A stretch of 63,432 bases of DNA, counting the filler, from an uncultured bacterium (lineage in GTDB: Bacteria; CAYJRR01): NCBI GenBank assembly GCA_964372275.1. It is 4 parts of 4 records of this genome, joined end to end, with 100 filler letters (N's around TTAATTAATTAA, not from the genome) between each part and the next. Parts side by side here need not be neighbours in the genome. Positions count along the whole stretch, not along the records: positions 1 to 15,989 come from CAYJRR010000104.1; 3 more parts are not named here. One strand, written 5' to 3'. Made by a program: the position numbers and the translations under genes. A model generated the notes under the pieces. It saw only the letters and a program-made list of their open reading frames with translations, ran no database searches and was not told where the DNA came from. Below, piece by piece: positions 3,745-47,861 of the stretch (positions within the stretch are counted from its first letter, which is position 1; every line of letters begins with the position of its first letter).

Positions 3745-4263
3745 ATGGCCCTCAATGAACGGCTGCGCCACCTCTTCCAACGCGAGAACGTCCGGTACCA
3801 GATCCTTCCCCATCCCGAGGCGGTGACCGCCTCGGAGATCGCGGCGGCGACGCACGTCTCCGGAAAATCGTTGGCGAAGGTGGTGATGGTGCGGGACGAG
3901 AACGGCGCGCTGCGGATGGCGGTCGTGCCCGCGGCGATGCGTGTCGATCTCCCGGCGCTGGCCCGGGCGATGGGGGTCGACACCATCGACTTCGCGCGCG
4001 AGGAGGAGTTCGCCCCGCTCTTCCCCGATTGCGAGATCGGGGCGATGCCCCCGTTCGGCAACCTCTACGACATCCCGGTCTTCGCCGACGATTCGTTCGC
4101 CCGCCGCAACGACTTCCATTTCCAGGCGGGCAATCACCACGAATTGGCGACGATCGACTACCGCGACTTCGAGCGCCTCGCCCGGCCGACGCTCGGACCG
4201 TTTGGCTACCTGCCGCTGACTCCGATCGACGTCGAGGCCGAGGCCGCGCACCCCGAGTACTGA
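3745..4263 (+). CDS. YbaK/EbsC/ProX family aminoacyl-tRNA editing domain protein
   Basis: LAKVVMV and FPDCEIGAMPPFG motifs, FQAGNH. Confidence 0.85.
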   Translation: MALNERLRHLFQRENVRYQILPHPEAVTASEIAAATHVSGKSLAKVVMVRDENGALRMAVVPAAMRVDLPALARAMGVDTIDFAREEEFAPLFPDCEIGAMPPFGNLYDIPVFADDSFARRNDFHFQAGNHHELATIDYRDFERLARPTLGPFGYLPLTPIDVEAEAAHPEY

Positions 4264-4339
4264 CGCGCGGAGTGTTCCCGGTCTCTCGCATCGCCGGTCC
4301 TCGGACTTCCGGCGGGCGACGGCGGCGTGCTACACCAAC

Positions 4340-5071
4340 GTGCGCGTGCCCCCCGCCCTTTCGATCGTCTTCCCGGCGTTCAACGAGGCGCGGCGGCTTC
4401 CGGACAGCCTGGAGAGGACGTTCGCCTGGCTGGAGTCGCGCCGGTCCGGGCTGCAGGCGGAGGTGCTGGTGGTCGACGACGGTTCCACCGACGGCACCGC
4501 CGACCGGGTGCGGGCGCGCTTCGGCTCGCGCCCCGAGCTTCGGCTCCTTTCCTACGGCGGGAACCGCGGCAAGGGGTTCGCCGTCCGCCACGGGATCCTC
4601 GCCGCGAGCGGCGAGCGGGTGCTGATGACCGACGCCGACCTCTCCACGCCGATCGAGGAGCTGGAGCGCCTCGAGCAGACGATGGAGGAGGAGGGGCTCG
4701 ACATCGCGATCGGCTCCCGGGCGCTCGGCGAGGTGGTGGTTGCCCAACGCGGCGTGCGGAGCTTCGCAGGCAAGATCTACAACCGGATCATGCGGGCGAT
4801 CCTGCTCCTCCCGTTCCACGACACCCAGTGCGGTTTCAAGCTGCTGCGGCGCGAGCGGTGCCTTCCCGTCGTCCGGTCGGTGCGCATCGACCGCGTCAGC
4901 GTCGACGTCGAGCTCCTGTTCCTGGCCCGGCGCTCCGGGCTTCGCGCGGCGGAGATTCCGGTGCGCTGGTACAACAGCCCGGAGTCGAAAGTGAGTTTCG
5001 TCCGCGACGCGTCGCGGATGTTCTTCGACGTGCTTCGGATCCGGTGGTGGTCGATGACCGGCGGCTACTGA
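4340..5071 (+). CDS. Glycosyltransferase family 2, polyprenol-phosphate glucosyltransferase-like
   Basis: LSIVFPAFNE, VVDDGSTDGT, NRGKGFAVRHG, MTDADLS, DTQCGFK. Confidence 0.9.
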   Translation: MRVPPALSIVFPAFNEARRLPDSLERTFAWLESRRSGLQAEVLVVDDGSTDGTADRVRARFGSRPELRLLSYGGNRGKGFAVRHGILAASGERVLMTDADLSTPIEELERLEQTMEEEGLDIAIGSRALGEVVVAQRGVRSFAGKIYNRIMRAILLLPFHDTQCGFKLLRRERCLPVVRSVRIDRVSVDVELLFLARRSGLRAAEIPVRWYNSPESKVSFVRDASRMFFDVLRIRWWSMTGGY

Positions 5072-6069
5072 ACGACGCCGATCAGCCGCTTCTTGCGGAG
5101 CACGATCAGGATCTTCACCACGTCGAGGTCGTAGAGCGGCGTCCGGTCGAGGACCTCGCCCACCGAGGAGTAACGGACGATCGACCGCAACACGGCCTGC
5201 ACCGCCGGCGGGAGCTGCTTCAACAGGGTGGCGTCGGCGGTGAGCAGGCGAAGCCGCACGCGCCGCGGCGGGACCTCGGATCCGATCTGCTCCAGCTCGT
5301 CGATCTGCCGGAACCCCTCGATCAGCATGTTCTCGAGGCTCATCTGCACCCGCCGCTCGAACCGGTCGACGTCGACCGGCTCGGGTCGGAATTCGAAGTC
5401 GGCGTCGCGCCAGGCGAGCAGGCGGAAGATCGCCTTCTCGTTCTCCACCGGTCCGATCACCGCGTAGACGGCGCGACCCTCGACGCAGTAGATCCGGCCG
5501 ACCAGGTCGTCCCGCTCGAGCTCGAGGATCCCGGTGGAACGGTTGGCCGACATCATCTGCAACAACTCGGGGAGCGCCATCAGCGACAGGTTCCCCTGGA
5601 ACGATCTCTTCTTCGAGGCGGCCGGCGGAGGCGGAACCGCGCGATCGCGGAAGGCGTCGGACAGCGCGTAGATCGCGGAGAGGTCGGCCGCCGGATCGTC
5701 GCTGAAATAGACCTTCATCAGCGTCTGGCCGATCTGGACCTTGTCGCCGCTCTTCAGGTTCTGGCTGGTGACCTTGCGGCCGTTGACGAAGGTGCCGTTC
5801 GTCGAACCGAGGTCCTGGATCGATACCTCCTCCTCGACCCAGGCGATCTTGGCGTGCCTCCGGCTGACCAGGTGCTCGTCGATGAAGATGTCGGTCGACT
5901 GAGACCGCCCGGCGAACAGGATCTGGCCGGGACGCATGCGGAACTTCCGCCCGATGGCGCTTCCGGTGATGACGAAGATGTTCACTTCGCGCCCGACCGG
6001 CTCGCGCTTCGGCTCCGCCACGGGCAGGAGGTCCGACAGGCTGCCGACGAACGTCTTTTCTTCGGCCAT
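5065..6069 (-). CDS. FHA domain + DUF4388 (PatA-N-like) signalling protein
   Basis: FHA motifs GRS, VSRRHA, DLGSTNGTFVNG, then FQGNLSLMALPELLQM..TGILEL..GRIY typical of DUF4388. Confidence 0.85.
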   Translation of the reverse strand: MAEEKTFVGSLSDLLPVAEPKREPVGREVNIFVITGSAIGRKFRMRPGQILFAGRSQSTDIFIDEHLVSRRHAKIAWVEEEVSIQDLGSTNGTFVNGRKVTSQNLKSGDKVQIGQTLMKVYFSDDPAADLSAIYALSDAFRDRAVPPPPAASKKRSFQGNLSLMALPELLQMMSANRSTGILELERDDLVGRIYCVEGRAVYAVIGPVENEKAIFRLLAWRDADFEFRPEPVDVDRFERRVQMSLENMLIEGFRQIDELEQIGSEVPPRRVRLRLLTADATLLKQLPPAVQAVLRSIVRYSSVGEVLDRTPLYDLDVVKILIVLRKKRLIGVVQ

Positions 6070-6185
6070 CGTCCTCGCGCTACGCGCTCACGCGGCGGAA
6101 GGGCTCGCGCAATCGCGCGGCATTCCCGCGTCCTACCTTCGCGGTCAGTCTACCCGCGCGCGAGCCGCCGAAGCAAGGCGCCGGC

Positions 6186-6410
6186 CTACGCCGGATCGAC
6201 GGCCTTCGCGCCACGCGACCGCGTCGCCTTCGTCTTCGCGCGGGGCGCGGAGACGGACAGCTGCGACTCGGCCTCGAGCCAGTGCGTCAGTTCCTGCCCG
6301 AACGGCCGGCCGCGCTCGCACCAGATCTCGTACGCCCGCTTCGCCACCATTTCGTGCGACACCGCGGCGGGCGCCGGCGCTCGTGTCGATCTCCCCGTGT
6401 TCCGCTCCAT
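6186..6410 (-). CDS. DUF2934 small protein
   Basis: HEMVAKRAYEIWCERGRPFGQELTHWLEAE; ATG at 6410 preceded by a GAAGGAAG ribosome-binding site. Confidence 0.8.
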   Translation of the reverse strand: MERNTGRSTRAPAPAAVSHEMVAKRAYEIWCERGRPFGQELTHWLEAESQLSVSAPRAKTKATRSRGAKAVDPA

Positions 6411-6539
6411 CGCTTCCTTCTCCTGTTCGTACCCGAAGATGAAGGGGCTCCATTCAATCCGACTCGACTGCGGGGGCAAATGAATTCTTTGCGTCAAACC
6501 CTTGCGCCCGAGCCGCGCCTCATGGGATGAACCCCATCG

Positions 6540-7277
6540 GTGCGACCGATCGTCCTGGTCATGACCGAAGGACCGCGTCGATTCGCCCGCCGCAAGCTGC
6601 GGGACACGCGCGGCTCGGTCGATGCCGCCACCGCCCTCCTTGCGCACGCGCTGGAGGTCGCCGCGACCGCCGGGGAGGTGGTCGTCTGCGCCCCGGCGGG
6701 CGCCGGCGATGGTCTCGAGACGGCGGCCGTCCGCTGGCTCGCACAGGGTTCCGGATCGCTCGCCGCCCGGCTGTGTCGCGCGCTCCAGGAGTTGCACGCC
6801 GAAGAGGCCGCCGCCGGGCGCGACCGGCCGATCGTGGTGCTCGGCGACGATTGCCCCGGCCTCGACGAGGAGGTTCTCGACGACGCCGTGCGCCACCTGA
6901 CCGCGGGAGAGCCGTCGGTGCTCGGCCGGGCGCGCGACGGTGGCTTCTGGCTTTTGGGACTCTCGCGCTGGAACGGCGATCTCGCGGCATCGCTCGCGGC
7001 GAACGTCGCCTGGTCCGGCCCGCGCGCGTTCGAAACGGCGCAGGCGCTGCTGCGGCGGACGTTCGAGCGGAAGCCGGCGATCGTGGCCGAGCTCGACGAC
7101 CTCGACGCGATCGAAGATGTGGCCGGCGCGGTCCGGGCCGCGACCCGCCCGACGTTGAAGCGGGCCCTGGCGGCGGTGCGGCCCGGGCTCCCCCCCGCCG
7201 AATCCGACGATCCGCTCCCGCCGCCCGCCGTCGGGCTGCCTGCCGGACGCCTGCCGCGGCCGCCGCCGCGTCGCTAG
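6540..7277 (+). CDS. DUF2064 (TIGR04282-like, CofC-like) putative glycosyl/nucleotidyltransferase
   Basis: VVLGDDCPGL, VLGRARDGGFWLLGL, VAWSG, LDDLDAIED correspond to the family motifs GxDxP, GPxxDGGY, WS and DVD. Confidence 0.75.
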   Translation: MRPIVLVMTEGPRRFARRKLRDTRGSVDAATALLAHALEVAATAGEVVVCAPAGAGDGLETAAVRWLAQGSGSLAARLCRALQELHAEEAAAGRDRPIVVLGDDCPGLDEEVLDDAVRHLTAGEPSVLGRARDGGFWLLGLSRWNGDLAASLAANVAWSGPRAFETAQALLRRTFERKPAIVAELDDLDAIEDVAGAVRAATRPTLKRALAAVRPGLPPAESDDPLPPPAVGLPAGRLPRPPPRR

Positions 7278-7356
7278 GCCCCCGCGATCGACGCTTTCCC
7301 TACACGCGGCCCGGCGCACGCATGGCCGCAGAACCGGCCGTTTCGAAGGAGTCCCC

Positions 7357-9831
7357 ATGTCGCTCACGCCGCAGACGATCCTCCACACGCCTTCGCTGAC
7401 CCACTGGCACTCGAGCGACGGGCTCCACTTCGCCATCGACGCCGACGGCCCGAACTGGATCGCGACCGACGGCCGCGGGGCGAAGATTCTGACGGCGATC
7501 GACGGCCGGACGACGCTGGCGCAGCTGGTCGCCGCGTGTCGCGGAGATCTCGATCCGGCGAAGGCGTGGCTGCACGTCCACTCGTTCGTGCAGTCGCTGG
7601 TGCGCGCCGGGATCGCACGCACCACGCCCTTCGCGCGTCCCCCGTACGCCGGTCGCGCCGCCCACCTCGCGGCCGGCCGCCTTCGCGAGTTCTGGATCCA
7701 CACCAACAACTCCTGCAACCTGACCTGCGAGCACTGCCTCGTCTCCTCGGGGCCCGACGGCGATCGGGGACTCGCGACCGAAACACTCTTCAAGGCGATC
7801 GACCAGGCGGCGAAACTCGGCGTGGAGCGCTTCTACTTCACCGGTGGCGAGCCGTTCCTGCGAAAGGACGTCTACGAGCTGATCGCGCGGGTGACCGGGA
7901 CCCACGACCGGGAGCTCGTGATCCTGACCAACGCCACCCTGTTCGAGAGCGAGACGCACAAGAACGCCCTGTCGAAGCTCACGCGCGAGAAGGTCCGCTT
8001 CCAGGTTTCGATCGACGGAACCAACGCCGCCGACAACGACCCGATCCGCGGCAAGGGGAGCTTCGAGAAGGCCTCGCGCGGATTGCAGCGTCTCTCCGCG
8101 CTCGGCTTCGAGACGTCGCTCACCGCCGTCCCGTGCCGGGGGAACCTCCGGGAGCTGCCGAAGCTGCCGTCGCTGGCGAAGGCGCTCGGGGCTTCGAGCG
8201 TGCACCTGATGTGGCCGCACCGCCGCGGCCGCGCCCTGCAGATGCTCGAGGAGCTGCCGTCGGTGGACGAGCTTCTCGCCGTGGCGCGCGAGGTGCGGGC
8301 GGCGGCCGCGGAGGCCGGGGTGCGGCTCGACAACGTCGAGAGCCTGAACGGACGCGTCAACGCCGTCCCCGGCGTGAAGCACGATCTCGGGATGGCCGGT
8401 GTCGAATCGCTCTGCCTCTACTCCGACGGCGTCCTCTATCCCTCGGCGGCGACGGCCGACCACAAGGAGCTGGCGATCGGAATCCTCGACGGCAAGAAGC
8501 TCGAGGAGGTCTGGAAGGCGTCGCCGGTGGCGGCGGCGCTTCGCGAGGCGTCGATCGCCCGGAAGCCGTCGGCCTGGGACGATCCGCTCCGTTTCATCCT
8601 CGGCGGCGGCGACGTGGAGCATGCCTACTTCTGGGGGGGGAGCTTCCTGTCGGCCGATCCCTACGAGAGGCTCTACCGGGAGCTCGCCAAGGACGCGATG
8701 CACGAGATGGCGGCCCGCGGCCGGGATCGGCTCAACCGCCGCGCCGGCTACGACGCGCCGGTGATCTTCCACGCCATGGGGGACGGCGCGCTGGCCTGCG
8801 GCGACGAGGCGCCCGGGGCGGTGCGCACCCTCCACTCCAACTGCGTTCTCGCCTTCGACGTCGACCGGCCACGCGCGCTGGTGCGCGAGTTCTACGGCGC
8901 CGCCGCCGAGAAACCGAAGGCGGAGCTGTGCTGCCCGGTCCGTCCGTCGGAGGACGATCTGCGGCACATCCCCAAGGACGTCGTCGACCGGTTCTACGGG
9001 TGCGGAAGCCCGGTGCAGGACGCCTCGATCGCTTTGGGGGAGACGACGCTCGACCTGGGAAGCGGCGCCGGGATCGACGTCTTCATCTCCGCCAAGTACG
9101 TGGGCAAGGAGGGGAAGGCGATCGGCGTCGACATGACCGACGCCATGCTGGGCGTGGCGCGGGAGAACAAGCCGATCGTCGCCCGGAACCTGGGCTACGA
9201 CGTGGTCGATTTCCACAAAGGGTTCCTGGAGAAGGTGCCGGTCGCCGACCGGACGGTCGACGTCGTCACCAGCAACTGCGTGGTGAACCTCTCCCCCGAC
9301 AAGCGCGCCGTCTTCGGCGAGATCTGGCGGGTCCTGAAGGACCACGGCCGCCTGGTCCTGGCCGACATCGTCGTCGACCGCGCCGTCCCGCCGCACCTGC
9401 GGGTGAATCCGCAACTGTGGGGGGAGTGCCTGACCGGGGCGCTGACCGAGGACGAGCTGATGGCGGAGCTCGAGCGCGCCGGCTTCTACGGACTCGAGAT
9501 CCTGAAGAAGAGTTTCTGGCAGAAGGTCGAGGGATACGTCTTCTCCTCGGTCACGGTGCGCGCCTTCAAGTTCGAGAAGAAGACCGGCTGCGTCTATCTC
9601 GGCCACCGCGCCGTCTACCAGGGGCCCTACAAGAGCGTCTCCGACGAGGAGGGGCACCTCTTCCCGCGCTACGAGGAGGTCGAGGTCTGCACCGACACCG
9701 CGGCGAAGCTGACCCACGCGCCGTACTCGGCGACCTTCACGGTTCTGGGTCCCGACGGACAGGTGGTGGCCGCCGTCGACGCCTCCCGCTTCACCAGCGA
9801 AGTTGGCGCCTGCGGACCGGGGTGTTGCTGA
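7357..9831 (+). CDS. Fusion protein: PqqD-like domain, radical SAM, degenerate SPASM, ArsM/AS3MT-like arsenite methyltransferase
   Basis: AAGGAG RBS; CNLTCEHC, FTGGEP, LTNA, VSIDG (radical SAM); CCP, FYGCG, LDLGSGAGID, SNCVVNLSPDK, WGECLTGA and terminal CC (ArsM). Confidence 0.85.
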   Translation: MSLTPQTILHTPSLTHWHSSDGLHFAIDADGPNWIATDGRGAKILTAIDGRTTLAQLVAACRGDLDPAKAWLHVHSFVQSLVRAGIARTTPFARPPYAGRAAHLAAGRLREFWIHTNNSCNLTCEHCLVSSGPDGDRGLATETLFKAIDQAAKLGVERFYFTGGEPFLRKDVYELIARVTGTHDRELVILTNATLFESETHKNALSKLTREKVRFQVSIDGTNAADNDPIRGKGSFEKASRGLQRLSALGFETSLTAVPCRGNLRELPKLPSLAKALGASSVHLMWPHRRGRALQMLEELPSVDELLAVAREVRAAAAEAGVRLDNVESLNGRVNAVPGVKHDLGMAGVESLCLYSDGVLYPSAATADHKELAIGILDGKKLEEVWKASPVAAALREASIARKPSAWDDPLRFILGGGDVEHAYFWGGSFLSADPYERLYRELAKDAMHEMAARGRDRLNRRAGYDAPVIFHAMGDGALACGDEAPGAVRTLHSNCVLAFDVDRPRALVREFYGAAAEKPKAELCCPVRPSEDDLRHIPKDVVDRFYGCGSPVQDASIALGETTLDLGSGAGIDVFISAKYVGKEGKAIGVDMTDAMLGVARENKPIVARNLGYDVVDFHKGFLEKVPVADRTVDVVTSNCVVNLSPDKRAVFGEIWRVLKDHGRLVLADIVVDRAVPPHLRVNPQLWGECLTGALTEDELMAELERAGFYGLEILKKSFWQKVEGYVFSSVTVRAFKFEKKTGCVYLGHRAVYQGPYKSVSDEEGHLFPRYEEVEVCTDTAAKLTHAPYSATFTVLGPDGQVVAAVDASRFTSEVGACGPGCC

Positions 9832-9900: not shown

Positions 9901-9904
9901 TCGG

Positions 9905-11074
9905 ATGGCGGTGATCTTCGTCCTTGCCGCGGCGCTCTTGGTCGCCTACGCGAACGGCGCGAACGATAACTTCAAAGGGGTCGCGACGCTTTTCGGCAGC
10001 GGGACGACCGACTACCGTCGGGCGCTTCGCTGGGGGACGGCGACGACCTTTGCCGGCGGTGTCACGGCGCTGGTCGCCTCCGCCGGACTGGTGAAGGCGT
10101 TCAGCGGGGCCGGGCTGGTTCCGAACGCGCTCGTCGGCGCGCCGTCGTTCGTGGCCTCGGTGGCGCTTGGCGCGTCGCTCACCGTCCTGGCGGCGACGCT
10201 CCTCTCCCTCCCGATCTCGACGACGCACGCCCTGACCGGCGCGCTCGTCGGAGCGGGCCTGGTGCTGGGAGGAGAGGTTCACTTCGCGGTGCTGGGCAAG
10301 AAGTTCTTCCTTCCCCTCGCCGTCTCGCCGTTCCTCGCCCTGTCGATTACCGCCCTGCTCTACCCGGCGCTCCGGCGACTGCGTCTCGCGCTGGGAATCG
10401 CCCGCGAGTCGTGCGTCTGCGTCGAGGGGCGATGGGTGCCGCTGTCGACGGTGGGCGGCGCTTCGGCGGCGGCGACGGTTGCCGAGCCGAGCCGAGCCGG
10501 CGGCGCGCACGCCGCGGCGAACGCTTCGCTCGGCCTCCAAGGAGGCGCGGTCCCCCTCCCCGTCCTCACCACCTGTCAGCAGCGCTACTCCGGCGCCGTG
10601 CTCGCCGTCGACGCGCAACAGGCGATCACCGTGGCCCACTACGCCAGCGCCGGCGCCGTCTCCTTCGCCCGGGGATTGAACGACACGCCCAAGATCGCCG
10701 CCCTGCTGCTCGCCGCGCAGGCGGTCGGCCTTCGCCACGGCATGCTCCTCGTCGCGATTGCGATGGCCGCCGGGGCGATCCTCCAGGCTCGCCGCGTCGC
10801 CCAGACCATGAGCCAGAAGATTACCGAGATGAACGCGGGCCAGGGATTCACCGCCAACCTGGTGACGGCCCTGCTCGTGATCGTCGCCTCGCGGTTTGGT
10901 CTTCCGGTCTCCACGACGCACGTCTCGTGCGGGTCGCTCTTCGGCCTCGGCGCGGTGACCGGCACCGGCCGCTGGGGGACCGTCACCGGGATCGTCCTCG
11001 CCTGGCTCGTGACGTTGCCCGCCGCCGCCGCGCTCGCCGCCGCCACCGCGGCGATCGTGCGCGCCGCAGCCTGA
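9905..11074 (+). CDS. PiT (PHO4) family inorganic phosphate/anion transporter
   Basis: NGANDNFKG, LPISTTHALTG, ARGLNDTPK, LPVSTTH duplicated signatures; multiple hydrophobic segments; GGGAGG RBS. Confidence 0.9.
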   Translation: MAVIFVLAAALLVAYANGANDNFKGVATLFGSGTTDYRRALRWGTATTFAGGVTALVASAGLVKAFSGAGLVPNALVGAPSFVASVALGASLTVLAATLLSLPISTTHALTGALVGAGLVLGGEVHFAVLGKKFFLPLAVSPFLALSITALLYPALRRLRLALGIARESCVCVEGRWVPLSTVGGASAAATVAEPSRAGGAHAAANASLGLQGGAVPLPVLTTCQQRYSGAVLAVDAQQAITVAHYASAGAVSFARGLNDTPKIAALLLAAQAVGLRHGMLLVAIAMAAGAILQARRVAQTMSQKITEMNAGQGFTANLVTALLVIVASRFGLPVSTTHVSCGSLFGLGAVTGTGRWGTVTGIVLAWLVTLPAAAALAAATAAIVRAAA

Positions 11075-11167
11075 CCGGCCGATTCGACCTCTTCGCACCG
11101 CGCATCGAGCGACGGCGGCTCCGACCTTCGACGCGGCGTTGCGCGGCGCGTGGTAGATTGCGCGGCG

Positions 11168-13047
11168 GTGACTCGGGTCCGCCGCTCGTTCCTCGCCGGT
11201 CTGCTGCTCGCCGTGCTCGCCGGTTGCGATCGCGACGCGCCGTGGTACGGGACGACGACGCCCAAACACGGACCCGGGGAGCTCTGGCTCAACAACCTCT
11301 CCGAGCCGGAGTGGATCGACCCGGGGAAGTGCTCGGACGCCGCGGGCGGGACGGTGATCAGCAACCTGTTCGAAGGGCTGACCGCGGCCGATCCGCGGAC
11401 GCTCGGACCGACGCCCGGGATGGCCGAGCGCTGGGAGATCTCCCCCGACAAGCGCGTCTACACCTTCCACCTGCGCGCCGGCGCCGCCTGGTCGGACGGC
11501 GTCCCGGTGACGGCGCACGACTTCGTCTACTCGTGGGCGCGGGTGCTCGATCCCGCGACGCTCGCGAAGTACGCCGACCAGCTGTACGAGATCCGGAACG
11601 GCGAGGCGGTGCACCAGAAGGCGCTGCACGTCGTCGGTCTCCCGCCCGACGAGAAGGCGGTGCGCGCCGCCTTCGAGCGCTTCGGCCCGGTCGAGCGCGT
11701 CAAGCTCGAGCCCGAACCGGCCTTCGGCGGCGGCGCCTTCGTCTGGATGGGCGAAGGGGCCAAGCCGGCCGAGGAGATCCTCGCCGCACTTGCCGGCCGC
11801 GGCACGACGGAGTCCGGTGGCGCCGCGACCGCCCCGTCCGGCGTGCGGGTGAAGGTCGCCGGTCCGGAGGTCCTCGGCCTCAAGGCGCTCGACGAGCGGA
11901 CGTTCCAAGTGACGCTGGAGTTCCCGGTCCCCTACTTCCTGCCCAAGATCACGACCCTCTACACCATGAGCCCGGTGCCGCGGCACGTGATCGAGCGGTT
12001 GAAGGCTTCCGGAAAGAACCCCGACCTCTGGACACGGCTGGAGAACATCGTCTCCAACGGACCGTTCGTCCTGAGCGAGTGGAAGTTCCGGCAGCAGATG
12101 TCGTTCGAGCCGAACCCCCACTATTGGGACCGCGCGGCGGTGCGCCTCGAACGGGTGAAGGCGTTGATGATCGAGTCCTACACCACCACGCTCCAGATGT
12201 ACAAGGCGGGGGAGCTCGACTACATCGGCGAGAACGTCAACATCCCCTCCGAGTATTCGGCCTTCATGCGGACCAAGCGCGACTACCGGTTCGCGGGGTA
12301 CACCACCACCTACTGGTACTGGTTCAACACCGGCGCCCCCGGCGTCTCCGACGTGCGGGTGCGGCGGGCGCTGAACATGGCGACCGACAAACAGGCGATC
12401 GTCGACCACGTCACGCGCCAGAACCAGCTCCCGGCGACCTCGTACATCCAGGACGGCCTCAACGGCTATCGCAAGATTGCGGGGCAAGGACACGACCCCG
12501 ACGGGGCGCGGCGGCTGCTCGCGGAGGCGGGCTTTCCCGGCGGCAAGGGGCTGCCACCGATCACCATCGCCTACAACTCGAGCGAGACGCACAAGGCGAT
12601 CGCCGAGGCGATCCAGGAGATGTGGCGCAAGGAGCTGGGGGCCGACGTCAAGATCGAGAACAGCGAGTGGCAGGTCTTCCTCAAGAGGCTGCAGATGGGG
12701 GACTACCAGGTCGGGCGCCTCGGTTGGACCGCCGACTACCCCGATCCGTTCACCTTCCTCTCGGTCTTCCTCTCCACCAGCGGGAACAACCACGCCAAGT
12801 GGAAGAACCCCCGCTTCGATGCCATGGTCGCCGACGCGAACATGAAAGCCGATCCGGCGGAACGGATGGCGGGCTTGGCCGCCGCGGAGCGGCTGCTCCT
12901 CGACGAAATGCCGGCGATGCCGATCTACTTCTACACGCGGGCCTACCTCATCAAGCCCTACGTAAAGGGGCTCTACTCCAACTTCGCCGACCGACACCCC
13001 TGGAAGGCGATCTGGATCGATCCCGACGCGGTCGCCAGAGGTGACCT
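11168..13047 (+). CDS. oppA: Oligopeptide ABC transporter substrate-binding lipoprotein with RRM-like insertion; 3' end in assembly gap
   Basis: Lipobox LAGC; LFEGL, YTFHLR..WSDGVPVTAHDF, VSNGPF, DVRVRRAL, GWTADYPDP. Confidence 0.88.
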
Positions 13048-13057
13048 NNNNNNNNNN
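13048..13057. other. Scaffold gap (10 N) hiding the oppA end and oppB start
   Basis: Run of N in the sequence. Confidence 0.95.
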
Positions 13058-13922
13058 CGTGGTGATCTCCTTCTTCCTCATCCGGCTCGCGCCGGGGAGC
13101 CCGTTCGCCGCCGAACGGAAGATCGCCAACGAGGTGAAGGCCGACCTGGAGCGCAAGTACGGCTTCGACCGGCCGCTGCCGGAGCAGCTGTTCCGCTACG
13201 TGCGGAACGTCGCGCTCGCGGGCGATCTGGGCCTTTCGACCAAGTACCCGCAACGAACGGTGAACGAGATCATCGCCGAGGGGTTCCCGGTGAGCCTGGC
13301 GCTAGGGCTCCTGGCGCTCGTCTGGGCGCTCCTGGTCGGCGTCGGCGCCGGCGTCGTCGGGGCGGTGCGGCAGAACAGTCCGCTCGACTACGGCGCCATG
13401 GGCTTCGCCATGATCGGGATCAGCCTCCCCAGCTTCGTGCTCGGGCCGCTGCTGGTCCTGCTCCTGTCGCTCACGCTCTACTGGTTCCCGCCCGCCGGAT
13501 GGGGGACGTGGCGCCACGTCGTGCTTCCGGCGCTGACGCTCGGAACGGTCTACGCCGCCACCGTCGCGCGGCTCACCCGCGGCGGGCTCCTGGAGGTCAT
13601 CCGCCAGGACTTCGTCCGCACCGCGCACGCCAAGGGGCTCTCCGAGCGGGTCGTCGTCTGGCGACACGTCCTCAAGGGAGGACTGCTTCCGGTGGTGAGC
13701 TACCTCGGTCCGATGACGGCATCGCTCTTCACCGGATCGGTGGTGGTGGAGAAGATCTTCGGCACCCCCGGAATCGGCCCCTACTTCGTCGACGCCGCCG
13801 CCAACCGCGACTACTTCCTGATGATGGGGATGGTCGTCTTCTACAGCGGCTTCCTGCTGGTCGCGAACCTCCTCGTCGACATCGCCTACGGCTTCCTCGA
13901 CCCGAGGATCCGCTATGAGTAG
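13058..13922 (+). CDS. oppB: Oligopeptide ABC permease; 5' end in gap
   Basis: FFLIRLAPGSPF, GDLGLS, DFVRTAHAKGLS, VEKIF, LDPRIRY. Confidence 0.9.
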
Positions 13923-14784
13923 CCCCGCCCTCGTCGAAGGGACGAGTCTGTGGCGCGATGCCTGGCGGCGGTTGCGGCGGAACCGCATGGCGCTGGCCGG
14001 TCTGACCATCGTGCTGCTGCTCGCGCTGGCGTGCGTCGCGGCGCCGCTCCTCAGCCCCTACGGCTTCGAGGAGCAGCAGCTCCGGCTCGGCGCGCAGCCG
14101 CCTTCGTCGGCGCACTGGTTCGGAACCGACTACCTCGGCCGCGATCTGTTGACCCGAGTCCTCTACGGCGGACAGATCAGCCTGGCCGTCGGCCTGATCG
14201 CGGCGGTGGTCAGCCTTCTCATCGGCGTCGCCTACGGCGCCTTCGCCGGCTACGCCGGGGGCCGGATCGACGGGGCGATGATGCGCTTCGTCGACGTCCT
14301 CTACAGCCTGCCGTACATGTTCCTGGTGATCCTGCTGGTGACGCTCTTCGGACAGAACATCCTGCTCCTCTTCCTCGCGCTGGGCGCGGTCCAGTGGCTG
14401 TCGACGGCGCGGATCGTCCGCGGGCAGGTGCTGTCGCTCAAGGAGAAGGAGTTCGTCCTCGCGGCCCGTTCCGTCGGGACCCCGGGTTGGAAGATCGTCG
14501 TCCGCCACCTGATCCCGAACACGCTGGGTCCGATCGTCGTCTACTTCACCCTCACCGTGCCGCAGGTGATCCTGCAGGAGGCGTTCCTCTCCTACCTGGG
14601 GCTCGGCGTCCAGGCGCCGCGTCCGTCGCTGGGGGCGCTGATCAACCAGGGGGCCGCGCACATGGACGTCTACCCGTGGGAGCTGGTCTTCCCGGGCGCC
14701 GTGATGGCGGTCCTCCTCTTCTCGCTGAACTTCGTCGGCGACGGGATCCGCGACGCGCTCGATCCGCAGATGAAGAGGAGCTGA
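13915..14784 (+). CDS. oppC: Oligopeptide ABC permease
   Basis: SLWRDAWRRL, HWFGTDYLGRDL, EFVLAARSVG, GDGIRDALDP. Confidence 0.92.
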   Translation: MSSPALVEGTSLWRDAWRRLRRNRMALAGLTIVLLLALACVAAPLLSPYGFEEQQLRLGAQPPSSAHWFGTDYLGRDLLTRVLYGGQISLAVGLIAAVVSLLIGVAYGAFAGYAGGRIDGAMMRFVDVLYSLPYMFLVILLVTLFGQNILLLFLALGAVQWLSTARIVRGQVLSLKEKEFVLAARSVGTPGWKIVVRHLIPNTLGPIVVYFTLTVPQVILQEAFLSYLGLGVQAPRPSLGALINQGAAHMDVYPWELVFPGAVMAVLLFSLNFVGDGIRDALDPQMKRS

Positions 14785-14792
14785 CGCTTCCG

Positions 14793-15758
14793 ATGCCACT
14801 GCTCGAAGTCGACGGACTGCGGACCGAGTTCTCCTCCGACGAGCGCGTCGTCCGCGCCGTCGACGGCGTCTCGTTCTCGCTCGACGAGGGGGAGACGCTC
14901 GGGATCGTCGGCGAGTCGGGTAGCGGAAAGAGCGTCACCAGCCTCTCGATCCTGCGCCTGCTGGGCGCCACCGGCCGGATTTCCGGCGGATCGATCCGCT
15001 TCGCCGGACAGGAGCTCACTCGCCTCCCCGAGCGCGAGATGCGGCGCCTACGCGGAAACCGCATCTCGATGATCTTCCAGGATCCGATGAGCTCGCTGAA
15101 CCCGTTCCTTTCGATCGGGCGGCAGATCACCGAGGTGCTCGAGCTCCACCGGGGGATGACCCGTTCGGCGGCGCGCGTGGCGGCGGCCGAAGGACTGGCG
15201 CGCGTCGGGATCCCCGACCCGGCCGGCCGCCTCGACCACTATCCGCACCAGCTCTCCGGGGGAATGCGCCAGCGGGTGATGATCGCCATGGCGCTGGCGT
15301 GCGAGCCGAAGCTGCTGATCGCCGACGAGCCGACCACGGCGCTCGACGTCACCGTCCAGGCGCAGATCCTGGAGCTGATCCGCGGGCTGCAGAAGAACCT
15401 CGGCACGGCGGTCGTGTTGATCACGCACGACCTGGGGGTCGTCGCCGGGACGGCCGACCGCGTCGCGGTGATGTACGCCGGCCGCATCGTGGAGACGGCG
15501 CCCGCCGACCGGATCTTCGCCCAGGCGGCGCATCCCTACACAGGCAGCCTCCTGGCCAGCCGCCCACGCGTCGACGGCGACCGCGAGCGCACGCTGCCGG
15601 CGATCCCGGGACTTCCGCCCGACCTGTCTCGCCTTCCGTCCGGATGCGCCTTCCATCCCCGTTGCCACCGCGCGGTCGATGCCTGCCGCGACGAAGTGCC
15701 GGCCTTCGTGCAGATCTCCGAACACCACCGCGCCGCCTGCCGGGAGATACGGTCGTGA
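14793..15758 (+). CDS. oppD: Oligopeptide ABC ATP-binding protein
   Basis: [33 protein letters not shown]. Confidence 0.92.
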
Positions 15759-15989: not shown

Positions 15990-16089
15990 NNNNNNNNNNN
16001 NNNNNNNNNNNNNNNNNNNNNNNNNNNNNNNNNTTAATTAATTAANNNNNNNNNNNNNNNNNNNNNNNNNNNNNNNNNNNNNNNNNNNN
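15990..16089. other. Artificial contig linker
   Basis: N run, TTAATTAATTAA (stops in all six frames), N run; 100 nt. Confidence 0.97.
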
Positions 16090-19000
16090 ACTGCGTCCCC
16101 ACGAAGTCCGCCGGAGGCGTGTAGGTGAGAGTGGGCGCCGTCCCCGAAAGCGAACCGCCGACCGTCCCGGAGAGGTCGAAGACGTAGGCCGCACCGGCCT
16201 GATCCGCCAAGTTCTCGTCCGGATCACCTCCGTCGATTCCCGTTGCCGACGAGTCCTCGGAAAAGGCGCCCGCTATCACGGTAGTGCCGGATACGGAGAC
16301 CGCGTTCATGCGGTCGGAGGCGTCGGGATTCGTCGCTTTCAGATAGGCCAACGGGGTCCAAACCCCTCCGACGCGGCGATAGACGTACGCCGCCCCGCTC
16401 ATCGACGCGGAGTCGTCCGACGGATTCCCGCCGACGCCACTGGCGCCCGAATCCTCCCCCAACGCGCCAACGACCAGCGTGTCGCCGTTCACCGCAACCG
16501 TCTCACCGAAACGGTCCTGCACGGTGAGGCCCGATGGTTTCAGATAGGCCCTCTGCGTCCAGGCAGAGCCCACGCGTTCGAAGACGTGTGCCGCGCCCGC
16601 GTCATCCACGGTCGAATCGTCGTAGCTGTTCCCGACGACGATGACGCTCCCGGAGATCGCCACGGAGTAGGCGAAGAAATCTCCCGGGTTGGAATTGAGG
16701 ATCGTCTGGAGACTCCACGTCGTGCCGGTCCGCTTGAAGACTCGGCACCACCCGCGACCGGCGACGATGGTGTCCCCCGAGATCCCGACGACTGCGCCGA
16801 GATCGCCGTACGTCACCGGCGCGGAATCCTTGAGGTAGGCCTGTTGGGTCCAGACGCTCCCGTTCCGAACGAAGACGTAGAGCGCTCCGGCGTTGTCCTT
16901 GGAGTTGTCCGCCTGGTTTCCGGGAATCCCCGAAGCCTCACCGCCGGCGCCGACCACGACCGTGTCACCTGAGATGGCGACACTCGTGCCGAACTCGTCC
17001 CACGCCTCCGCGTTCGACGCCTTGAGATAAGCCTGCTGCCGCCAGGCCCCACCGCTGCGCACGAAGACCCACGCCGCACCCGCGCGAGTCGCCGACATGT
17101 CGGTCGGGTCTCCGTTGATCCCGGTCGAGGCCGAGTCCTCCTCGTAGCCTCCGACGACGATCGTGTCCCCGTCGATCGCGACGCTCACGCCGAACACGGC
17201 GTGGGGCTGGACATGGTTCGGCTTGAGGTACGCCTGCTGCCGCCATACGCCGCCCCGCCGCACGAACACGTAGGCGGCGCCGGCGCTCATCGCGGACCGG
17301 TCCGACTGGTCTCCATCGACACCCGGGCTGCCCGACCACTCGTAGAGAGCTCCGACCACCAGCGTATCGCCCGAGACGGCGACGGCGTTTCCGAAACCGT
17401 CGGGACTGCTCGTGTTCGATGCCTTGAGTGTGGTGATCGAGCCCGTCGGTGATGCCTCGAATTCGAAGGTGACCGCTCCGCCGTCGGGATCGCTCCCGAC
17501 GAGCACGATCGGCACCGGCGACTCTTCGGCCGTCGTGATGCGCTGCGGAACCGCCTTCGGCGCGTCGTTCACCGGCTGGACGGTGATCGAAACGGTAGAG
17601 GGTGCCGAGACCCCTCCCGTACCGTCCGATACGCGGAAGGAAAACGTGTCGACTCCGGCGAAGTCCCGAACCGGCACATAGGTGAGGTTGGGTGCCGTCC
17701 CGATCAGCGCGCCCTTCGCAGGGAGGACGCCGACGTACGCGGCGCCGCTGTCCGCCGCCGAATCGTCGGCCCCGTTTCCGTCGATGCCGCTCGCGTTCGA
17801 ATCCTCCTGGTGGGCGCCGACCGCCCACGTATTCCCGTCGATGGCGACCGCCTCCCCGAACCGATCGGGCACTCCGGGGTTCGGGGCCTGGAGGATCTCC
17901 TGCTCGGACCAGACCGATCCGTTTCGCACGAAGCGGTAGACAGCGCCGTACTCCAGCGCCGTCGGGATCTCGTTGCTTGCGTCGGTCTGGTCCCGGGCAG
18001 GAGATCCCACGAATAGGACGTCGCCCGAGACGCTGACGCTGTGACCGAACCCGTCGAAGTTGGTGCCGTCCGAGGCGGCGAGGCTCTGCTGGAGAGTCCA
18101 GACCCCTTCCGAATCCCGAACGTAGACGTACGCGGCGCCACGGTCGGGCCCCCCGGGATTCTCGGCGTGGGACCCGACGACGACCGTGTCGCGCGAGATC
18201 GAGACGCTCGCACCGAACTGGCTGTCGTCCCGGTCCGACGCGACCGGAGACTTGAGATAGGCCTGCGGACTCCATGTCGATCCGCTCCTCGTGAAAACAT
18301 ACGCCGCGCCGCTATCGGGATGTCCTTCGTCGCTGGTGTTGTAGTTGCCCGCTTCGTGAGGACTCACCGCCGGGTGAAGGACGACGCCGATCGCTGCCGC
18401 GTCCTCGCGCCATGCGCCGACGACGATCGTGTCGCCGTCGATGGCGACGCTGTTACCGAATTCGTCGCCGTACGCCGTCGGGTCGGATCCGGAGCCGTCG
18501 CGATTGAACGCCTTGAGGTAGGCCTGCTGCGTCCACGTCGTGCCGTTCCTCACGAAAACGTACGCGGCACCGCTATTGAATAGAACGTTCCCAGGCTCGC
18601 TGGCCTGGTTGCCGTTCACCAGGCGGGAGCCGGAGTCCTCCTGCAGCGCCCCGACGACGACCGTGTCCCCCGAGATGGCGACGCTCGCACCGAAGAAGTC
18701 GTTGGCGTCCGGGTTGGACGCCTTCAAGTAGGCCTGCTGACTCCAGGTCGTGCCGCTTCGCACGAAGACGTAGGCGGCGCCCGCCTGCTGCTTCGATTCG
18801 TCCGCCTGGTTGCCGCCGATGCCGGCCGACGCCGAATCCTCCTCGGCCGCGCCGACGACGATGGTATCCCCCGAGATGGCGACGCGCTTGCCGAAGCCGT
18901 CCCAATCGTCGCCGTTGGAGGCCTTCAAGTAGGCCTGCTGCGCCCAGACGCCGCCGCTTCTCACGAATACGTAGGCGGCGCCGCTGTTCTGCCGGCTGTT

Positions 19001-22000
19001 GTCCGCCGGATCGCCGTTGACGCCAACCGCTCCCGAATCCTCGCCCGGCGCGCCGACGACCATCGTGTCGCCCGAGACCGCGACGCTGCGGCCAAGCTCG
19101 TCGCCGGGATCGGTGTTCGGGGCCTTCGCGTAGGCCTTTCCACCGACCGGTGACAACAGTTCGAACGTCACCGGCGAGCCCTCGGGATCGTTGCCGGTCA
19201 GCACGATCGAGATCGGCGTCTCTTCCGTGGCCGTCACCGCCTGCGCGTCGGCCACGGGGTCGTCGTCTACCGGCGTGATGGTCAACGACACCGTCACCGT
19301 CGCGGACTCCGCCGCGGACGGATCGATCGCTTTGTAGGTGAACGAGTCGGTTCCGCTGAACTCCGCCGCCGGCGTGTAGACGAATGCGCCGTCGGCCTGC
19401 AGGACCAGCGACCCGTTCGCCGTTCCGGAGACCAGATTTGCCGTCAGCGAATCGCCGTCGACGTCGGAATCGTTTCCCAGCACCCCGGGCGCCGCCACGG
19501 AGAGCGGGACGTCCTCGGCCGTGGTGTAGCCGTCGTCGGTCGCCACCGGCGTGTCGTTCACCGGCGTCACCGTGATGCTGAAGCTTTGCGCGGCGCTGAC
19601 GTCGATGCCGCCGCCGGTCGTTCCCCCGTCGTCCTGCAATCGCACGGTGACGGTCGTGAGTCCGTTGGCATTCGCCGCCGGTGTGAAGGTCAACGTCCCG
19701 TCGGCGGCCAGAGCGGGCCCCGACGAGAAAAGCGCGCCGTTCGTCACGTCGAGCAGGAAGGTGAGCGCCTGGGACGATTCGTTCGCCGGACCGCGGGAGA
19801 TTGCGGTCGCCCAGCCGGACAGTGTCGCCGCCCCCGAGTCTTCCGCCACCTCGGGGTTCCCTCCCTTCACGAACGACGGAGCGTCGTTGACGGCGACGAC
19901 CGTGAGGGAGAAGGTCTGGGGCGCACTCAGATCGATACCGCCGTTCGCCGTGCCGCCGCTGTCCTGGACGCGGACGGTGACGACCGCCGTCCCGGCCGCG
20001 TTCGTCGCCGGCGTGAACGTGAGATTCCCGGTGGCGATGGCGATGGCCGGCTGGACGGAGAAGAGCGCGTTGTTGTCGTTGGTGACGGTGTACGCGACGA
20101 CCGTCTGCGATGCCTCGTCGGCGGGTCCTTCCCACGACGCGGGACTGTTCGGATTGTTGGTGTTGCTCGGACTCGCCCAGGCGACGACGGTCTGCGCCGA
20201 CGTGTCCTCCAGCACGGTCTGATCGGCCCCTTTGGCGAAGGTCGGCGCATCGTTCACCGCCGTCACCACGACGGTGAACGTCTGCGCGGCGCTGGTGTCG
20301 ACACCTCCATCCGAGGTCCCGCCGTCGTCATGAATGCGTACGGTCACCGTGGACGTGCCGTTGCCGTTCGGCGCCGGAGTGAACGTCAGTGTCCCGTCTG
20401 CCGCGACGGCCGGGCCGGCGGAAAAGAGGGTGGGATTGCTCGCACTCACCAGGAAGTCGACCGCTTGGCTCGACTCGAAGGATCCGGCGCTGATCGCGTT
20501 CGCCCAGCCGGCGTAGCTCGCCGGCCCGCTGTCCTCGAGGACGGTCTTGTTGCCGCCTTTCGTGAAGCTGGGGACGTCGTTCACCGGCGTCACGGTGACG
20601 GTGAAGGTCTGGGGGTCGCTGGTGTCGACGCCGCCGTTCGCCGTCCCGCCGCTGTCCCGGACCTGCGCCGTGACCGTCGCCGTTCCGAACCGGTTCGCCG
20701 CCGGCGTGAAGGTCAGGTTTCCGGTGCTGGTACCGACGGACGGATTGCTCGAGAAGAGCGCGGTAAAGCTGTTGCCCAGCACATAGGCGCTCACCGTCTG
20801 TGAGGCTTCGTTCGTCGGTCCTTCCCAGTCGACCGGGCTGTTCGGGGCGTTGGTGTTGCTGGGAGAGGCCCAGCTCGTCGCCGTCCGTAGGCCGCTGTCC
20901 TCCAGGACCGTCTGGTCCGCGCCCTTCGTAAACGTCGGCTTGTCGTTGACCGCGGTGATCGTGACGGGGAAGGTCTGGGGGTCGGAAAGGTCGACGCCGC
21001 CGTTGCCCGTCCCACCGTCGTCGCGCACTTGCACCGTCACGGTCGCGACGCCGTTCTGGTCCGGCGCCGGTCGGAAGGTCAGCGTGCCCGCCGCGGAGAC
21101 CGCCGGCTGCGCCGAGAACAGGCCGCTGTTGTTGTTGGTCACGACGTAGCCCGACACCGTCTGGGTCGACTCGTCCGCCGGACCCTGCCACCCCGCCGGC
21201 GTGGTTGCCCAGCCGACGACCGTCACGTCCCCTGCGTCCTCGAACGCGGCCTGGTTCGCCCCCTTCGTGAACGTCGGCTTGTCGTTGACGGCCGTGATGG
21301 TGATCGAGATCGTGGCCGCTGCCGACTCGAGCCCTTCGTCGTCCGTCACGGTGAAGTTGAAGCTTGCCGGGCCGTTTGCGTTCGACGGAGGCGTGTAGGT
21401 GACGTTCGGCGGGGTTCCGGACACCTCGCCGACGGTCGGAAGGCTCGGCGTGGCATAGACGGCTCCGCTCGACGAGGATCCTTCACTCGCCTGGCTGCCG
21501 CCGATGCCGGTTGCACTCGAGTCCTCCTCGGGCGACCCGCTGACGATCGAGTTGTAGCCCCACAACGCGACACTGGTCCCGAAGCGGTCGAACGCCGTGT
21601 TGTTGGAAGCCTTGACGTACGCCTCCTGGGACCACGTCGTTCCGACCCGGGCGAAGACGTAGGCGGCGCCGCTCGACGTGGCGTCGTTGTTGGAACCGCT
21701 GCCGCCGACCCCCGTCGCATTCGAGTCCTCGTAGGGAGCGCCCACCGCGAGCCGGTTGCCCGAGATCCAGACGCTCGCCCCGAACCAATCGTTGTTCTCC
21801 GCGTTCGACGCGGTGAGGTAGGCCTGCTCGCTCCACGTCGATCCGTTCCGCGCGAAGACGTAGGCCGCTCCGCCGCTGGCCGACGCCGTTCCGTACGCCT
21901 GCTCGGAACCGACGGCGAGGTCGTCCCCGGAGAGGGAGAGTGCGCCTCCGAACCGGCCCTGCAGGGAGGGGTTGGACGCTTTCACGTAGGCCTGCTGCGA

Positions 22001-24706: not shown

Positions 24707-24972
24707 GAGCAAATCTCCTCCCGATGGCTCGCAACGACCGACGCACGGCGTCGACCGGAGATGCCTGCGGTTCCCACTCCCGCGGCACAACAAGATCGTA
24801 ACCCTTCGAAATCAATGCGGATATGTGCGCTTCAGACGCGATCCGCCGACAGACCTGTCACACCGGAACTGCGAAAAGTGCCTGGAATTCGCTGCGATCC
24901 GAATGCGCCACGATGGCGCGCAGATCACGGGCGCAGCACCACCGATTCCGTGGCTTGGCCGGATCGAAGCGG

Positions 24973-31908: not shown

Positions 31909-32008
31909 NNNNNNNNNNNNNNNNNNNNNNNNNNNNNNNNNNNNNNNNNNNNTTAATTAATTAANNNNNNNNNNNNNNNNNNNNNNNNNNNNNNNNNNNN
32001 NNNNNNNN
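31909..32008. other. Artificial contig linker
   Basis: Same N/TTAATTAATTAA/N structure. Confidence 0.97.
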
Positions 32009-47761: not shown

Positions 47762-47861
47762 NNNNNNNNNNNNNNNNNNNNNNNNNNNNNNNNNNNNNNN
47801 NNNNNTTAATTAATTAANNNNNNNNNNNNNNNNNNNNNNNNNNNNNNNNNNNNNNNNNNNN
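47762..47861. other. Artificial contig linker
   Basis: Same N/TTAATTAATTAA/N structure. Confidence 0.97.

Follow-up and report, generated by a model that had tools for sequence, protein, structure and literature searches.

A predicted RRM-derived domain in a loop of an OppA-family lipoprotein from an uncultured bacterium

OppA is a textbook periplasmic receptor, and RNA recognition motifs (RRMs), one of the most widespread kinds of RNA-binding fold, are regarded as intracellular. The two seem to be combined in the sequence given above: a stretch of 63,432 nucleotides from an uncultured bacterium (GenBank assembly GCA_964372275.1), joined from parts of four records and hereafter called the window, encodes an OppA-family substrate-binding protein in which a segment resembling an RRM (11624-11860, + strand) lies within a loop. 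The nearest solved relative of this protein is the OppA of Salmonella (1b05; E 2.3e-101), whose residues R413, W416, D419, H371 and W397 presumably hold the peptide termini and the backbone of the ligand. Phmmer aligns the window protein with this chain in two blocks (query residues 46-145 with chain residues 16-113, and query residues 241-608 with chain residues 133-498), between which about 95 residues of the query face about 19 in the solved Salmonella OppA. Sequence profiles and structure models support the assignment of the additional segment as a diverged member of the RRM superfamily, grafted in a loop of an exported OppA lipoprotein. That the segment is an RRM-derived insert in a functional OppA is held to be very likely; a role as an accessory binding module that does not serve RNA is put forward more tentatively.

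OppA and the RRM are each well known. Their combination, as well as an RRM-fold domain outside the cytoplasm, appears to be undescribed: a search of the full-text literature, with subscription journals outside its coverage, found nothing on an RRM in OppA, in SBP_bac_5 proteins or in exported bacterial proteins. Retained on exported OppA lipoproteins, with carriers named in three phyla, the RRM-derived domain indicates a recruitment of this fold to the cell envelope, and it raises the question of what the ligand of an RRM may be where no cellular RNA is around.

Position, kinship and fold of the insert

The segment at 11624-11860 corresponds to residues L159-A237 of OppA, and the landmarks by which the earlier note had delimited it are in place, namely YEIRNGEA at residues 146-153, LHVVGL from residue 159 (nucleotide 11624), VRVKVA at residues 232-237 (ending at nucleotide 11860) and LGLKALDERT from residue 242. 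Together with the residues at its junctions, the inserted segment extends over Q156-G243 (11615..11878, + strand), as delimited by alignment with homologs devoid of the insert, and a hidden Markov model (HMM) built from 77 inserts aligns with residues 156-243 over their full length. The match to the NCBIfam OppA model is taken up again at residue 239 (profile position 157). Of 8000 candidates scored in a word-index search, 3862 are homologs at E ≤ 1e-30, and the query was aligned with the best 120 of them (121 rows). The region equivalent to A153-G243 comprises 91 amino acids in the window protein, 68-158 in 92 homologs and 13-21 in the 28 others. The claim that the extra segment occupies a place where OppA normally has a short loop is therefore borne out, since 93 of the 121 aligned proteins carry the insert and 28 have a loop of 13-21 residues; likewise, the search for other SBP_bac_5 proteins with an insert at this site, which had been suggested as a check, returned 92 of the 120 best homologs.

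Public sequencing runs contain contigs that match the region with zero differing letters: X1 (11300-11805), X3, from a second study (11476-11730), and X4 (11737-11920). No single Logan contig extends across all 901 bases, X4 is the sole cover of positions 11831-11915, and X1 perhaps originates from the source sample. Both junctions of the insert are nevertheless bridged by public contigs without mismatches, which speaks against the chimeric assembly considered in the earlier note. The GC content at third codon positions is 0.921 in the insert and 0.929 in the gene.

Several profile comparisons tie the insert to RRMs. They were based on an alignment of 92 inserts (A3), from which the 158-aa insert of homolog P0032 was left out. 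In Pfam, RRM_1 matches 33 of the 92 inserts at E ≤ 1 and five of them at E ≤ 3e-4, RRM_occluded matches 20 at E ≤ 1, and the insert of homolog P0030 exceeds the RRM_1 cut-off of 20.7 bits with a score of 26.0 over profile positions 1-69 of 70. The precomputed Pfam annotation of P0030 already reads PF00076 (RRM_1) plus PF00496 (SBP_bac_5). When compared with PDB sequences, the A3 profile finds PABP (2.6e-17, over four stretches), HuD (2.3e-9) and HuR (4e-9), and its further top matches comprise the TUT1 RRM, Nop4, SHARP, nucleolin and Sex-lethal. A search of 1.84 billion representatives with the insert profile recovers 4630 proteins at E ≤ 1e-3; the best 150 of these are nearly all multi-stretch proteins, with scores summed over the stretches, and include one OppA (P0082). 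This last search supports kinship with RRMs and is uninformative on other bacterial architectures.

In five carrier genomes, all matches of the insert profile are either OppA-sized frames (seven, of 628-788 aa) or small ones (six, of 95-177 aa). Of the latter, five encode canonical glycine-rich RRM proteins, with an RNP2 of the form [LI][FY]VG[GN]L and an RNP1 of the form [RK]GF[GA]FV, and hhalign aligns A3 with these five proteins over 71 columns (probability 97.2%, E 2.8e-11). As a control for circularity, the insert HMM was rebuilt from the 77 inserts that lie outside the 15-row clade of the window protein; it scores window residues 156-243 at 41.5 bits over their entire length. Two further searches brought no lead: with residues 156-243, the best Protein Atlas score was 0.76, on SBP_bac_5 fragments and below the lead threshold, and a word-index search with the insert profile at longer lengths gave six matches, all of them OppAs of the known set, which, as crowding may affect this search, is no sign that other hosts are absent.

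The full-length protein was modelled with AlphaFold2 on the 121-row alignment (mean predicted local distance difference test (pLDDT) 93.7, predicted template modelling score 0.91), and secondary structure was assigned by DSSP. In this model the insert forms a beta-alpha-beta-beta-alpha-beta unit, in agreement with the fold that the earlier note had proposed to verify by structure prediction. Its predicted elements, all on the + strand, are (i) beta1, the RNP2-like LHVV (residues 159-162; 11624..11635), with a His at RNP2 position 2, (ii) alpha1 (residues 168-176; 11651..11677), the sole stretch of the window copy that Pfam RRM_1 aligns, (iii) beta2, VERVKL (residues 181-186; 11690..11707), (iv) beta3, the RNP1-like AFVWM (residues 196-200; 11735..11749), which carries the aromatic pair F197/W199, (v) alpha2 (residues 207-215; 11768..11794), at the start of which the Arg of the family is an Ala in the window, (vi) a low-confidence alpha2-beta4 loop rich in Gly, Thr and Ala (11795..11845) in place of the 'LNGxxLxG' turn of the family, with pLDDT 62-75 in blocks 211-230, and (vii) beta4, VRVK (residues 233-236; 11846..11857). 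Modelled alone with A3, the insert takes the identical topology (pLDDT 77.7). All rows listed by Foldseek against the PDB are RRM domains or RRM-containing complexes, the best being the Puf1 RRM of S. pombe (6nx5_B; E 8.1e-4, TM 0.64/0.73). A VIA search, independent of Foldseek and covering 48,161 chains, listed 50 entries that are all domains of the RRM or U2AF homology motif (UHM) type or ribonucleoproteins (Z 8.5-7.1). The central claim of the earlier note, an RRM-like domain in an OppA loop, thus finds support in the topology, in fold lists made up of RRMs only, in the profile matches to solved RRMs, in the hhalign comparison and in the passage of P0030 beyond the RRM_1 cut-off.

Distribution of the insert and its surface residues

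The carriers identified by name are metagenome-assembled genomes (MAGs) of Myxococcota (Polyangia, Polyangiales, 'Myxococcales'), Planctomycetota (Pirellulaceae, Pirellulales, Planctomycetales) and Bdellovibrionota, and the insert HMM, run on 80 genome loci, detects 14 open reading frames (ORFs) in 12 loci. A Bdellovibrionota MAG (L021) encodes three tandem insert-bearing OppA paralogs (3950-5941, 5829-7835 and 7923-9806). The longest insert, that of P0032 (753 aa), comprises 158 residues and has a long expansion rich in Ala, Arg, Gly and Ser between alpha2 and beta4.

A tree of the 121 proteins was computed after removal of the insert columns (quick search, LG+G4, unrooted). The window protein sits in a well-supported clade of 15 rows, all of which have the insert, and a clade of 23 rows devoid of it is nested among the carriers. 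The state of the insert requires six changes on this tree, at least four of them being forced by well-supported branches; the mean of shuffled states is 25.5, and none of 500 shuffles was as low. One old gain followed by several losses is the economical reading, which is not proven. The aligned sequences indicate that the insert is a widespread and old feature of an OppA subfamily. Compared with the window, the inserts share 17-51% identity and the whole proteins 40-67%, with indels in loops, so the insert appears to evolve faster than its OppA host. The closest relative in metagenome DNA shares 64% amino-acid identity, too distant for a meaningful ratio of nonsynonymous to synonymous substitutions.

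The same loop takes up other material. In three OppAs of Pirellulales (L034:3965-5908, L062:3881-5824 and L063:3764-5752), an unrelated insert of about 100 aa occupies it; this insert belongs to no Pfam family, gives no match to the RRM-insert HMM and looks rich in beta-strands. That unrelated inserts share the site suggests a hot spot of insertion. A natural domain insertion in a loop of a substrate-binding protein (SBP), where a second and unrelated domain is also accepted, is relevant to the acquisition of accessory functions by SBPs and to the choice of sites for engineered domains. In ten Verrucomicrobiota loci (L024, L027, L030, L031, L039, L050, L054, L056, L064 and L074), tblastn matches to OppA extend over about 2.7 kb and are probably tandem genes; the ORFs found there by motif scan have the short loop.

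The residues by which canonical RRMs are recognized are largely replaced. The consensus of RNP1 is [KR]-G-[FY]-[GA]-[FY]-V-x-[FY] and that of RNP2 is [ILV]-[FY]-[ILV]-x-N-L; the window copy reads GGGAFVWM and LHVVGL, retaining the Phe at RNP1-5 and the hydrophobic positions alone. Across the 92 inserts, K/R stands at RNP1-1 in 11, RNP1-3 holds an aromatic in nine and a Gly in 51, RNP2-5 holds an Asn in five and a Gly in 74, and RNP2-2 is occupied by F/Y/W in 24 and by His in 22. The canonical small RRM proteins of the carrier genomes conform at all four of these positions (5/5 at each). Replacement of part of the RNA-stacking aromatics, which the earlier note had remarked in the window copy, is thus correct and proves to be a trait of the whole family. 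Other positions are strongly kept: RNP1-5 is aromatic (F/Y/W) in 73/92 inserts and the next outward-facing position, RNP1-7, in 64/92, and a family-specific Arg stands at the start of alpha2 in 85/92, where the window has Ala. The median net charge of the inserts is -1 (56 negative, 21 positive, 15 zero). On the whole, the sequences speak rather against RNA binding of the canonical kind. The window copy is among the more eroded members of its family, with a degenerate alpha2-beta4 loop, the loss of the family Arg and a mere 12 bits on RRM_1.

The host gene and its surroundings

The oppA gene, coding for the lipoprotein that binds substrate for an ABC importer of the Opp type (11150..13047, visible part, + strand; SBP_bac_5 E 3.5e-93), was translated from a GTG start at 11150 into 630 residues (frame P0001); its stop codon is not visible because the frame enters a run of N's at 13048-13057. 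A signal peptide with a lipobox L-A-G-C at residues 23-26 is predicted at its start (11150..11227, + strand), with Cys26 as the predicted lipidated residue, followed by an Asp. This Cys is invariant in all 121 aligned homologs. The signal peptide of the window protein also includes RRSFLA, which resembles a twin-arginine export motif. Twin-arginine export was rejected as a family feature: a loose RR motif occurs in just 14/121 homologs (12/93 with the insert and 2/28 without it), and ordinary lipoprotein export is for this reason the likely route.

The window protein scores 313.1 bits on SBP_bac_5 of Pfam (cut-off 32.4; residues 87-547) and 355.2 bits on the NCBIfam OppA equivalog model NF011684 (cut-off 947). 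By these scores it is a member of the OppA family and not an equivalog of enterobacterial OppA. Residues R523, W526, D529, H481 and W507 align with R413, W416, D419, H371 and W397 of 1b05, respectively. The first three belong to the stretch R523-D529 (RLGWTAD; 12716..12736, + strand), placed by the phmmer alignment with 1b05, and are invariant in 121/121 sequences; W507 is also invariant and H481 nearly so. As the residues aligned to the Salmonella ligand contacts are all conserved, peptide capture of the classical type is expected, and the window OppA should be a functional peptide binder.

Directly downstream of oppA are encoded (i) the permease OppB (13059..13922, + strand; BPD_transp_1 E 3.8e-37), the start of which is hidden by the N-run, (ii) the permease OppC (13915..14784, + strand; OppC_N and BPD_transp_1) and (iii) the ATPase OppD (14793..15758, + strand; ABC_tran and oligo_HPY), which together with oppA make up an oppABCD operon. 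A PHO4/PiT-family phosphate transporter (9902-11074, + strand) is encoded directly upstream of oppA. Further upstream, a fusion protein of 824 aa (7357-9831, + strand) joins a weak PqqD-like N-terminus to a radical SAM domain and a class I methyltransferase domain and has a Cys-rich tail (CGPGCC) at its end. On the opposite strand, a giant ORF of about 2900 aa (16093-24793) contains 24 FG-GAP repeat stretches together with bacterial Ig and cadherin-like domains and is probably a surface adhesin-like protein. The window has seven N-runs totalling 274 bases (13048-13057, 15990-16033, 16046-16089, 31909-31952, 31965-32008, 47762-47805 and 47818-47861), the first of which covers both the stop of oppA and the start of oppB.

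In two Polyangiales MAGs (L001:141-5920 and L003:91-5899), one gene cluster unites both types of receptor, the insert-bearing OppA following an SBP_bac_5 gene devoid of the insert and two genes for permeases.

Proposed role and comparison with described systems

According to the favoured explanation, the gene encodes the subunit that binds substrate for an oligopeptide importer of the OppABCD type and is anchored by a lipid. In an ancestor of this subfamily of OppA, an RRM domain would have entered the accessory domain at a surface loop (the insertion site lies presumably within OppA accessory domain II), and the source would probably have been the gene of a small bacterial RRM protein, of a kind still present in carrier genomes. 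Outside the cytoplasm, a location that follows from the invariant lipobox Cys and the likely lipoprotein export, the domain would have kept the RRM fold and the beta3 aromatic pair; it would have lost most of the canonical RNA-contact residues, outpaced its host in evolution and been deleted repeatedly. The insert could accordingly be an exapted accessory module, dispensable for transport, whose aromatic sheet surface would bind or dock a protein, a peptide or another envelope component and not RNA in the canonical way. Exaptation is suggested because fold and aromatic pair were kept, RNA contacts were lost, divergence is fast and deletion is repeated. The analysis shows the insert, its predicted fold, its kinship with RRMs, its spread within the family and the residues it has lost; its origin, dispensability, orientation and ligand are inferred. 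Taken by itself, the mechanism, a non-RNA accessory binding module, stays somewhat short of an even chance; the explanation as a whole is given a probability of roughly 0.55.

Several observations weigh against this explanation. The window insert itself stays below the Pfam RRM_1 cut-off (12.0-12.3 bits against 20.7; 23 residues aligned, E 0.16-0.2), so that the check on RRM_1 proposed in the earlier note succeeds for P0030 and fails for the window copy. The model of the insert alone is of moderate confidence, and a VIA Z value near 8 can, as the tool itself cautions, reflect a common arrangement; the fold alone would for this reason not suffice, and it is the concordance of fold and sequence profile that carries the RRM assignment. 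Gains and losses of the insert are inseparable on the tree, which is a quick-search, simple-model, unrooted one. Among 66 upstream frames at 10 of the 12 insert-bearing loci, no conserved neighbour gene points to a partner; the sole recurring upstream families are further opp genes, in L001 and L003. Basic residues are partly kept on the sheet (K/R at RNP2-4 in 30/92 inserts and at the second beta4 position, column 175, in 34/92), and the predicted surface set of the window copy (H160, F197, W199, R233 and K235) would fit a platform for nucleic acid or glycan. Finally, the near-invariant Arg of alpha2 is without explanation, and the predicted sheet face may be either exposed or packed on the body of OppA.

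Instead, the insert could be tolerated in a loop prone to insertions, as a decoration that is neutral for function or has a structural role only, and could be decaying in the lineage of the window. Such a reading is unlikely, and it accommodates a good part of the history set out above, that is to say the repeated changes of state with a 23-row clade of insert-less proteins among the carriers, the faster divergence of the insert than of its host, the unrelated insert in the same loop of other OppAs, and the condition of the window clade, in which the alpha2-beta4 loops are shortened or degenerate and the window copy is without the Arg kept in 85/92 inserts. However, the fold pattern and the hydrophobic core persist in named carriers of three phyla and in 93 of the 121 homologs, with indels limited to loops, the surface aromatics of beta3 and the Arg of alpha2 are conserved beyond the needs of the fold, and one Bdellovibrionota MAG retains three tandem insert-bearing copies.

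A periplasmic RRM could also bind RNA or single-stranded DNA fragments, or nucleotide-bearing peptides, and so give the importer receptor a second specificity, a possibility along the lines of the earlier note that seems quite improbable. The insert is a true RRM homolog, its aromatics at RNP1-5 and RNP1-7 (73/92 and 64/92) and the K/R at two sheet positions (30/92 and 34/92) suit such a ligand, and the carriers include by name Polyangia, Bdellovibrionota and Pirellulales, groups known for predation or for scavenging macromolecules. These features are offset by the rarity of a basic residue at RNP1-1 (11/92), of an aromatic at RNP1-3 (9/92) and of Asn at RNP2-5 (5/92), by a median net charge of -1 with just 21/92 inserts positive, by the gain or loss of the insert on at least four occasions, and by the lack of any nuclease or nucleoside-uptake gene conserved alongside. 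That the inserts form the first extracytoplasmic RRM family to be recognized, carried on lipid-anchored OppAs of Myxococcota, Planctomycetota and Bdellovibrionota, and that they still bind a nucleic-acid-like or nucleotide-bearing ligand through the aromatic and basic sheet surface they have kept, is given only a slim chance; the candidate ligands may then be RNA or single-stranded DNA fragments from prey or detritus, or peptidyl-nucleosides. If true, it would couple the capture or sensing of nucleic acids to a peptide importer.

SPOR domains, which have an RNP-like fold, bind peptidoglycan in the periplasm, and a SPOR-type role, in which the insert would tether OppA to glycan strands or the cell wall, for example for harvesting murein peptides, has been weighed as well. 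The insert has the beta-alpha-beta-beta-alpha-beta fold class and the periplasmic location of SPOR as well as an aromatic platform on its sheet, and the murein-peptide binder MppA is a relative of OppA (4toz/3o9p, E ~1e-80). The likeness in sequence goes, however, to RRM_1 and to canonical RRM proteins, and SPOR is absent among the 25 of 42 families listed and among the listed Foldseek and VIA rows, limited lists in which its absence proves nothing; such a role is considered very improbable. A chance likeness to RRMs or an assembly chimera, to which the RRM_1 E-value of 0.16-0.2 for the window insert alone and the want of a single public contig across the whole stretch might lend colour, can practically be dismissed, since many independent assemblies share the insert at exactly the same site (93/121 homologs), both junctions are bridged by contigs without differences, the third-position GC content of insert and gene is equal, and profile and fold evidence agree.

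Compared with described systems, the window OppA shares with the OppA of Salmonella and E. coli (1b05 and its relatives) the SBP_bac_5 fold, the equivalents of the ligand contacts and the oppBCD operon. It differs from 1b05 by an RRM-fold domain of some 76-88 aa, at a place where the aligned blocks of the solved protein are about 19 residues apart, and from classical OppA, which is soluble, by its predicted lipid anchor on the lipobox Cys. With canonical RRMs, such as those of PABP, HuD and HuR and of the small bacterial glycine-rich proteins, the inserts have in common the fold, the profile homology, the aromatic at RNP1-5 and the pattern 'L.V.GL ... FV ... LNG..L.G..L.V'. Unlike them, the insert is predicted to be extracytoplasmic, lies within a loop of another domain and is slightly acidic; it is mostly without the basic residue at RNP1-1, the aromatic at RNP1-3 and the Asn at RNP2-5, and has gained the Arg of alpha2 and the aromatic at RNP1-7. 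UHMs are marked by an Arg-x-Phe loop and an acidic alpha1, and the proteins that carry them are nuclear and eukaryotic; UHM and 'occluded' RRMs, variants that bind proteins, resemble the insert in their RRM fold and degenerate RNP motifs, 20/92 inserts match RRM_occluded, and the UHM structures of SPF45, PUF60 and Tat-SF1 are among the VIA fold matches. SPOR domains likewise offer a small RNP-type fold in the bacterial envelope with a ligand surface on the sheet, whereas the insert resembles genuine RRMs and the families and fold rows listed include no SPOR. Lastly, the unrelated insert of Pirellulales (L034, L062 and L063) has the same host family, the same site and a similar addition of about 100 aa, and differs in its sequence.

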